From Escherichia coli (GTDB lineage: Bacteria > Pseudomonadota > Gammaproteobacteria > Enterobacterales > Enterobacteriaceae), in the NCBI RefSeq assembly GCF_003334405.1, contig NZ_QOWM01000003.1: a stretch of DNA of 64,000 bases; one strand, given 5' to 3'. Under the pieces are notes generated by a model. That model was not told where the DNA came from, searched no databases, and saw only the letters and a program-made list of their open reading frames with translations. Position numbers and translations under genes: made by a program. Shown in pieces: positions 34,891 to 35,325 of this stretch (position 1 is its first letter; the number at the start of each line of letters is the position of its first letter).

Positions 34891-35145
34891 GATTAATGGA
34901 TTAACTATGTCGGTTAAACGACCAGCCAACTGAAAAAGCGGAAACCTGATTACAGGTTGCCAGATAAGGCAATGAGCTACCTGGCGCGGAACGGACTGAT
35001 AAGTATGGGGAATGTTTTACGATGAACCTTTAGACTAAAGAGTTTGTAACGCTATGTAAGTGATTTTTTCTGGTTTAGATATTTATATGTCCGGCCAAAT
35101 TGAGGTGTGTTTAAATGTAATTGCACATTGATTGTAGGAGGAATA

Positions 35146-35325
35146 ATGAAAAACGCATTGCAGTTTTTGTTTGTTGCGTTCTGGTTGTTCGCATCATGTA
35201 TGCCCATCATCTTCACAGCAAGGTATATGGAAAAAGTTGATGTTTTGATATTAATATTTGGATATATAAATGCCCTTTTTTTAGGGGTGTTCATGGCGGT
35301 CATGTGCATTGAATACTGGCGGTAA
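35146..35325 (+). CDS. Hypothetical 59-aa two-helix hydrophobic protein
   Basis: ATG 35146 preceded by GTAGGAGG 6 nt upstream; MKNALQFLFVAFWLFASCMPIIFTARYMEKVDVLILIFGYINALFLGVFMAVMCIEYWR. Confidence 0.35.
   Translation: MKNALQFLFVAFWLFASCMPIIFTARYMEKVDVLILIFGYINALFLGVFMAVMCIEYWR

Follow-up and report, generated by a model that had tools for sequence, protein, structure and literature searches.

The window (the whole stretch of E. coli DNA analysed here, 64,000 nucleotides long) contains, at 35146..35325 on the + strand, a 59-codon frame that, judging from how its sequence has diverged, is very probably a genuine protein-coding gene. Homology and dN/dS support the gene, and an AlphaFold2 model predicts two transmembrane helices for its product, MKNALQFLFVAFWLFASCMPIIFTARYMEKVDVLILIFGYINALFLGVFMAVMCIEYWR. 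We give roughly even odds (a probability of about 0.5) to the reading that this is a genuine gene for an inner-membrane protein of Qin-like prophages, which would have an accessory role next to Hok, as effector or modulator.

Coding status and predicted structure of the peptide

A HMMER search of 1.84 billion representative proteins returned a 59-aa homologue, P0037 (41% identity, E 1e-8), that aligns with the window peptide without gaps from Met1 to Arg59. It belongs to a second lineage of the gene (lineage 2, represented by P0042; the window copy is of lineage 1), which is indexed in 3751 blocks of a public assembly collection. A tblastn comparison links the two lineages at an E of about 1e-11. 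They differ at 73 of 177 nucleotides (59% identity) without a single indel and share 24 of 59 amino acids (41%), and their start, stop and length (59 codons) coincide. In the frame of the ORF, a Nei-Gojobori comparison of lineage 1 with lineage 2, for which synonymous sites are near saturation, gave pN 0.34, pS 0.72 and a dN/dS of about 0.19, whereas the other two frames gave values of 0.45 and 1.2 and contain stops in both sequences. The excess of synonymous over nonsynonymous differences between lineages was significant by Fisher test (p = 8.7e-5). When divergence was simulated neutrally, the frame was still open in 2.7% of runs and at least 24 of 59 identities were retained in 0.5%; an open frame with the observed amino-acid identity occurred jointly in 0.025%. 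The original prediction had looked to conservation with synonymous-site variation as the mark of a real gene, and between lineages this is borne out, the dN/dS of 0.19 being found in the ORF frame only. Because there are just two lineages, both of them E. coli/Shigella DNA, the selection test is a single pairwise comparison. From this sequence divergence we judge the frame to have been preserved as a protein over long spans of evolution.

The open frame itself begins further upstream, at a GTG (35107..35325, +; 72 aa), and the ATG at 35146 lies inside it; it is from this ATG that the originally described 59-aa peptide is read. Direct reading of the sequence places a Shine-Dalgarno, GTAGGAGG, at 35134..35141 (+; core AGGAGG at 35136-35141). 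A strongly initiated 59-aa peptide behind a near-consensus Shine-Dalgarno is therefore found as predicted, except that the spacer from AGGAGG to the ATG is 4 nt (AATA) rather than 6 nt. The initiation region is free of RNA structure (fold of 35100-35200, z = 0.16). In lineage 2 an in-frame stop stands 5 codons upstream of the aligned ATG, leaving no longer form there, so the 59-aa form is the conserved product; we rejected the 72-aa GTG-extended form, whose extension is not conserved in lineage 2. The length of the ORF alone is not beyond chance: when the 342-bp, 36% GC cassette that holds it was shuffled, 8% of the shuffles yielded an ATG-initiated ORF of at least 59 aa on some strand. Phage annotators have instead called an antisense ORF of 85 aa, as 'hornerin' or 'hypothetical protein'. 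We rejected this ORF, which is without a homologue of its own, and the polymorphisms at lineage-1 allele sites, worked by hand, have no third-position bias in its frame.

Hydropathy and AlphaFold2 both agree with the two-helix membrane peptide that had been proposed. In both lineages, two Kyte-Doolittle windows exceed 1.6 and hydrophobic stretches cover residues ~4-25 (TM1) and ~31-55 (TM2), and AlphaFold2 places helices at 2-24 and 31-58 with moderate confidence (pLDDT 72). The charge pattern, too, is common to both: a positive N-terminus, a neutral to acidic loop and a short C-terminal E-x-W-R, a distribution for which the positive-inside rule predicts an N-in/C-in helical hairpin. The invariant or nearly invariant residues comprise those conserved in TM1 (W13, S17, C18, P20, I21, I22 and T24), then F38, G39, N42, A43, L44 and G47, and, in the C-terminal part, V48, F49, I55, E56, W58 and R59. 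Among them are a small-residue face on TM2, G39xxxA43xxxG47, accompanied by Asn42, and the tail I55-E56-x-W58-R59. Small-residue faces of this type mediate helix packing and oligomerisation in small membrane proteins.

Profile and structure searches linked the peptide to no characterised family. There was no match in Pfam even at E up to 10, none in PADLOC or among PDB sequences, and none for lineage 1 in PHROGs (E up to 1) or NCBIfam. Lineage 2 matched only phrog_6298 (unknown function; E 0.12) among the PHROGs and only TIGR03647, below threshold at E 0.03, in NCBIfam; the latter we dismissed as generic two-TM similarity. Foldseek against BFVD gave no fold match at E 0.001 or better. A protein with an HlyIII Pfam tag, P0034, was considered as a lead to a larger membrane protein and rejected as a chimeric metagenome call.

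The hok leader and the split hokD locus

Downstream of the gene lies the hairpin CTATCTGCC/GGCAGATAG (35427-35435 / 35454-35462), whose 9-bp stem encloses an 18-nt loop. The stem is present as originally described, but its association with the ORF does not hold, as the hairpin is the core of the first long stem-loop of a hok mRNA leader. Rfam RF01794 ('sok') matches 35415-35586 (+) along the entire model (positions 1-157 of 157) and scores 104.1 bits, its gathering score being 59. Its consensus begins GGGUGCUUGAG... and ends at AUG, and represents the sense hok mRNA leader known from plasmid R1. We thus annotate 35415..35585 (+) as a hokD-type hok mRNA 5′ leader, severed after the hok Shine-Dalgarno, which includes both the noted hairpin (35427-35462) and a remnant of the mok start (ATG 35527). 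This leader folds far better than its shuffles (z = -4.66), and both substitutions observed in the arms of the hairpin preserve the pairing, as G-U. The hairpin begins about 100 nt past the stop codon of the ORF, lacks a U-tract and drew no terminator call; given this distance, the missing U-tract and the RF01794 match, we rejected it as an intrinsic terminator. A putative hok mRNA promoter can be read at 35381..35408 (+), where TTGCGG (35381-86) and TAGAAT (35403-08) are separated by a 16-nt spacer and TAGAAT ends 6 nt before the leader's first base (RF01794 model position 1 = 35415); it is no more than a candidate because it falls below the threshold of a strict promoter scan.

What cuts the leader off from its coding sequence is a 3274-bp element of the IS1202 family (ISNCY/ISEsa1-like) at 35586..38859 (+), recognised from its ends, inverted repeats and transposase. 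It is bounded by an exact direct repeat of 15 bp, GGAGAAGCAGGCTAT, that we read as a target-site duplication: the left copy (35571..35585, +) consists of the hok Shine-Dalgarno plus the 'AT' of the start codon, and the right copy (38860..38874, +) supplies the Shine-Dalgarno of hokD (relF), whose ORF, the coding part of the hok locus now parted from its leader, follows at 38873..39028 (+). The element ends TGT...ACA (TGTTAACACC... and ...GCGTTGACA), with imperfect inverted repeats that match at 19 of 26 positions. Within it are tnp (35660-36973), flxA (37410-37742, -), ydfV (37945-38250, -), relB (38275-38514) and relE (38514-38801). The 437-aa transposase is complete, matching NF033594 at 456 bits over profile positions 7-365 of 368.

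The uninterrupted arrangement is common. Leader and hokD are contiguous in thousands of E. coli genomes (H87-H109), and these empty sites carry a single copy of the 15-bp repeat. In the phage genome vB_EcoS-640R1, the same leader runs directly into an ORF identical to HokD. In locus L003, the leader (4301-4441) corresponds to window 35446-35585, and the segment with the hok Shine-Dalgarno, ORF and 3′ region (4426-4689) corresponds to window 38859-39123 at 98%. The 3274-bp element, for its part, is single-copy and was found only in the relBE-hokD context.

Members of the IS1202 family have TGT/ACA ends and terminal inverted repeats of about 24-26 bp (PMC10132070). Our element shares with them the TGT...ACA ends with imperfect repeats and a DDE transposase within the range of about 430-510 aa. 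It differs in size and content, being 3274 bp long with four passenger genes where the family consists of simple insertion sequences of about 1.5-1.7 kb, and in its 15-bp target duplication, where the family has 3-5 bp, 16-28 bp or none. It behaves as a transposon-like derivative. The classical relBE-hokD arrangement thus arose by insertion of the element between the hok Shine-Dalgarno and start codon, and the duplicated Shine-Dalgarno now serves hokD. Earlier work had already remarked that relBE integrated into hokD (Ramisetty and Santhosh 2016, as cited in PMC6379469); we found no description of the transposon anatomy of relBE-hokD in the literature. The 'terminator hairpin' is the orphaned 5′ half of the hokD locus, and the window reveals, down to the base pair, the origin of the relBE-hokD (relBEF) operon.

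Prophage setting and distribution

By its sequence, the window belongs to an E. coli lambdoid prophage of the Qin-like kind. Aligned blocks share about 99.7% identity with the Qin region of ATCC 8739, and from 34947 to 35660 the two sequences agree completely (100%). The order in ATCC 8739 is dicA/dicC, replication genes, DUF977, methyltransferase, two pseudogenes and the ORF, followed by the ISNCY transposase, flxA, ydfV, relBE, hokD, rem, ydfU, Q and the lysis genes, and the ORF is co-oriented with the early-right genes; it points the same way as dicC (cro), the replication genes, Q and the lysis genes. Compared with ATCC 8739, 4.6 kb are missing from the window (L001 2782-7391), including dicB, dicA, dicC and the replication genes; since this deletion takes the dicA/dicC region, the early promoters are missing. 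The description of the surroundings as a decayed early region full of broken genes was apt: besides this loss, hok is split downstream, and the two genes upstream are PGAP pseudogenes in ATCC 8739.

The gene sits in an optional cassette of 342 bp and 36% GC (35026..35367, +), which fills the gap from the point where the upstream nin-region pseudogene stops (35025) to the hok promoter region. Seven other hok-bearing loci (L085, L098, L125, L131, L150, L173 and L178) have ~74 nt of different sequence in its place, so the cassette behaves as an optional insert. In other phages, unrelated short hydrophobic ORFs fill the same slot upstream of hok. Among IMG/VR loci, which were found through the ORF, the hok leader lies 89 nt downstream of the ORF in all 78 that were informative; the hok start is intact in 50, and the other 28 carry the transposon.

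No promoter for the lineage-1 ORF emerged from strict or relaxed sigma-70 scans, the strict scan having no promoter-like site on either strand from 34800 to 35700, and no terminator was found for this ORF. In lineage 2 there is only a candidate extended -10 (TGACATAAT), which precedes the ATG by 75 nt. As the upstream phage promoter has been lost and the neighbouring hok is cut in two, the window copy, although intact, is probably idle.

All close relatives of the peptide (at least 74% identity, or 93% or more over the full length) come from E. coli/Shigella, and several are truncated. Among 5426 complete E. coli genomes, 1570 carry the 342-bp cassette of lineage 1 (at 95% identity or more) and 1043 the lineage-2 locus. 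Lineage 2 is invariably found in a gutted prophage remnant flanked by ttcA and uspF, in the order ttcA, integrase fragment, ORF, hok coding fragment, sit ABC pseudogenes, uspF. E. coli K-12 lacks lineage 2, and the gene was not found there; with the gene absent from that strain, K-12 small-protein surveys do not cover it. The only match among GTDB species representatives, a 'Collinsella' MAG contig, proved to be 100% E. coli prophage DNA and was set aside. Because the search patterns applied to the GTDB species representatives were narrow, the absence of the gene outside E. coli is only weakly indicated. The gene is also carried by the deposited lambdoid phage genomes vB_EcoS-640R1, vB_EcoS-813R8 and PhiR42_1.

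In 40 RefSeq rows (PGAP) sampled across the ranking, no annotated feature lay under the lineage-1 cassette, and none lay at the lineage-2 locus in the RefSeq rows sampled. GenBank and UniProt label the product only 'hypothetical protein' or 'uncharacterized membrane protein', and a full-text search of a literature library for the peptide sequences found no paper and no functional or expression data. If translation of the frame does occur, as many as roughly half of the E. coli genomes sequenced would carry the gene (the sets of 1570 and 1043 may overlap), and it would encode a conserved small membrane protein that is unmarked in the sampled RefSeq records.

Possible roles beside Hok

The data support the coding status of the frame and the membrane-hairpin prediction only; the route of expression, oligomerisation and role of the peptide we infer. 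On the reading that we favour, the peptide would be made from read-through early transcription upon phage induction, read-through being suggested because searches turned up neither a promoter nor a terminator belonging to the gene. It would insert in the inner membrane, where it would most plausibly self-associate via the small-residue face of TM2, and would act with Hok as an accessory membrane effector or modulator in lytic development, influencing lysis timing, membrane potential or exclusion. [quoted passage not shown] A more specific version of this reading, which we think rather improbable, would make the peptide a dedicated partner of prophage hok/sok that potentiates or restrains Hok (antiholin- or immunity-like) during induction. 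If that were true, lambdoid hok/sok would be a three-part membrane-timing cassette and the unrelated hydrophobic ORFs in the same slot would be functional replacements; any hok partnership must be dispensable, since hok loci occur without the gene. The strict adjacency to prophage hok offers, at the least, a cheap and concrete hypothesis on how Hok-type toxins are used in induction.

The alternative to any present role is that the frame is a relic, once a gene or open by luck, and now drifting neutrally in cryptic prophages. We consider this unlikely. Among 22 distinct lineage-1 alleles, which were anchored on the hok leader and not on the ORF, the ORF has 8 nonsynonymous and 0 synonymous substitutions, and in 2 of the 22 it has a 1-nt deletion; lineage 2 adds 2 nonsynonymous and 0 synonymous polymorphisms. 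Within lineages, then, the expected conservation with synonymous variation is not seen, and the combined 10:0 pattern has a probability of 0.11 if neutral and of 2.6e-4 at a dN/dS of 0.19. These frameshift alleles and nonsynonymous changes favour a relic, as do the many truncated or chimeric variants in the protein database, the sampled PGAP records that leave the gene without annotation, the 8% of shuffles that reach its length, the lack of a detected promoter together with the deletion of pR in the window, and the survival of lineage 2 only in the gutted remnant between ttcA and uspF. Against this stand the inter-lineage dN/dS of 0.19, with the same start, stop and length kept without indels after 41% nucleotide divergence, and the presence of the gene in deposited lambdoid phage genomes. 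Moreover, the vast majority of about 100 independent contigs preserve an unbroken frame, and segregating sites are sparser in the ORF than in its flanks (8/180 vs 15/137, p = 0.03). The frequent variants are conservative (A16V, V31I, I37M, Y40H, L44I), and I37M and Y40H recreate lineage-2 residues. The 10:0 pattern is consistent with relaxed selection, most of these prophages being cryptic by now, and by this measure the present-day copies look relaxed.

Two further explanations would assign the peptide to a known class of membrane-active protein. As a holin-, pinholin- or antiholin-like protein, it would oligomerise through its glycine-zipper-like TM2 face and permeabilise or depolarise the membrane. 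We regard this as improbable, despite the resemblance to class II holins and in particular to pinholin S21-68 of phage 21: both are phage-encoded, of ~60-70 aa, with two TMDs (predicted ones in our case) and a small-xxx-small TM2 face, conserved here as G39xxxA43xxxG47. Pinholin S21-68 has an N-in/C-in architecture of two TMDs, which for the 59-aa peptide is a prediction from the charge distribution only. The gene also adjoins that of Hok, which is reported to assist prophage-mediated lysis (PMC8621323). The peptide lacks, however, the charged C-terminal tail and conserved dual-start motif of the pinholin, and has no sequence, holin profile (Pfam, E up to 10; PHROGs, E up to 1) or fold match (E 0.001 or better) to such proteins. 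Its gene, furthermore, lies in the nin region upstream of Q and not beside an endolysin, the lysis cassette essD-ydfR-rrrQ being about 8 kb downstream, after Q. Least probable of all, and in our view very improbable, is that it acts as the toxin in a separate type I toxin-antitoxin pair, whose antisense RNA would be hidden on the opposite strand. Its small size, hydrophobicity, strong Shine-Dalgarno and prophage location next to another type I system would fit, but the sequence-only promoter test of 34800-35700 was negative on either strand, no Rfam family covers the ORF, its 5′ region has no excess of RNA structure (z = 0.16, compared with -4.66 for the hok leader), and the polymorphisms, worked by hand, have no codon-position pattern in the antisense 85-aa ORF. 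The peptide has, in addition, two predicted TMDs, whereas enterobacterial type I toxins described to date have one. The Hok/Gef toxins themselves (hokD; hokW-sokW of Sp5) are likewise small hydrophobic inner-membrane peptides (by prediction, for ours) from lambdoid prophages, and the ORF shares their nin-region slot and strand and adjoins hok in every locus examined, but the 59-aa peptide has two predicted TM helices in place of the single N-terminal one that in this family precedes a conserved periplasmic C-terminal part, and no PF01848 match, and its gene has no mok-like overlapping frame, Sok-like antisense RNA or structured leader.

The peptide is a new and narrowly distributed example of a familiar kind, the small hydrophobic accessory proteins of prophages. 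With the K-12 small membrane proteins found by ribosome profiling or tagging it shares its hydrophobicity, a length below 60 aa and the fact of having been missed by automated annotation; it differs from them in that its gene is absent from K-12 and is known here from sequence alone. Like lambdoid morons and the optional ORFs of the nin region, the gene is a gene-sized AT-rich insert that is present or absent between conserved neighbours, but in lineage 1 it does not bring a promoter and terminator of its own, through which morons are expressed from a repressed prophage, and is apparently read-through-dependent.

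An IS1202-family element within the hok locus

The hok locus of the Qin-like prophage is split by an IS1202-family element of 3274 bp (window 35571-38874, including a 15-bp target duplication), which has TGT...ACA ends and inverted repeats of 19/26. The insertion point lies after the hok Shine-Dalgarno and before the start codon of hokD (38873-39028, plus strand), and the element carries an ISEsa1-like transposase gene together with flxA, ydfV, relB and relE. Its position within the hok locus accounts for how the relBE-hokD (relBEF) operon arose. The empty site, lacking the element, is present in thousands of E. 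coli genomes; the element itself is single-copy, and the only context in which we observed it is Qin. In K-12 and its derivatives, the 3′ part of the transposase gene (window 36789-36985) is the sole surviving piece and is annotated as ydfW/ydfX, so these K-12 "genes" sit on a transposase remnant.

Between hokD and rem, immediately after hokD, there is also a weak, sub-threshold match to isrK, an Hfq-binding sRNA of Salmonella (window 39037-39118; 25 bits vs a gathering score of 50).

Short ORFs upstream of hok and a second lineage

In deposited phage genomes, the 59-aa membrane-peptide gene is passed over and an overlapping 85-aa ORF on the minus strand (window 35052-35309) is annotated instead, as "hornerin" or "hypothetical protein". 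This antisense ORF is probably a mis-annotation, since the polymorphic sites, which we scored by hand, favour no particular codon position when read in its frame.

In loci lacking the 59-aa gene, different short hydrophobic ORFs fill the slot directly upstream of the hok promoter (about 2970-3070 in the cassette-free locus L085, and also in L098, L125, L131, L150, L173 and L178; about 1650-1745 in L164). One of them, MTWPEAFTTTGIAMAAALVVYSICSWG, is linked to the upstream gene by an ATGA overlap; a second, LVLKCALAITAVMAIYCLAIVLMDRLSD, has a GTG start preceded by CAGGAGG. Neither of these two matched a known family.

The diverged lineage-2 homologue (5001-5180 and flanks in L193; L192-L200) resides in a prophage remnant between ttcA and uspF, alongside part of an integrase, a hok coding fragment and pseudogenes of a sit-type ABC transporter. 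This locus was found in 1043 of 5426 complete genomes, and the homologue's ATG is preceded, at a distance of 75 nt, by a candidate extended -10 (TGACATAAT).

Records labelled as other species and a 4.6-kb deletion

L202, a contig from a "Collinsella sp." MAG (JAIJJM010000167.1), encodes the E. coli 59-aa ORF at 100% amino-acid identity, almost certainly through binning contamination. The cassette is also found, at 99.4% identity, in a 9.5-kb plasmid record labelled "Klebsiella oxytoca" (NZ_CP069920.1).

Relative to ATCC 8739, the window carries a 4.6-kb deletion (L001 2782-7391) that removes part of an exonuclease gene, ydfD, dicB, ydfABC, dicA and dicC, as well as the replication genes and most of a DUF977 gene. 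The 10-bp overlap between the two alignment blocks at its junction (window 33391-33400) is suggestive of microhomology.
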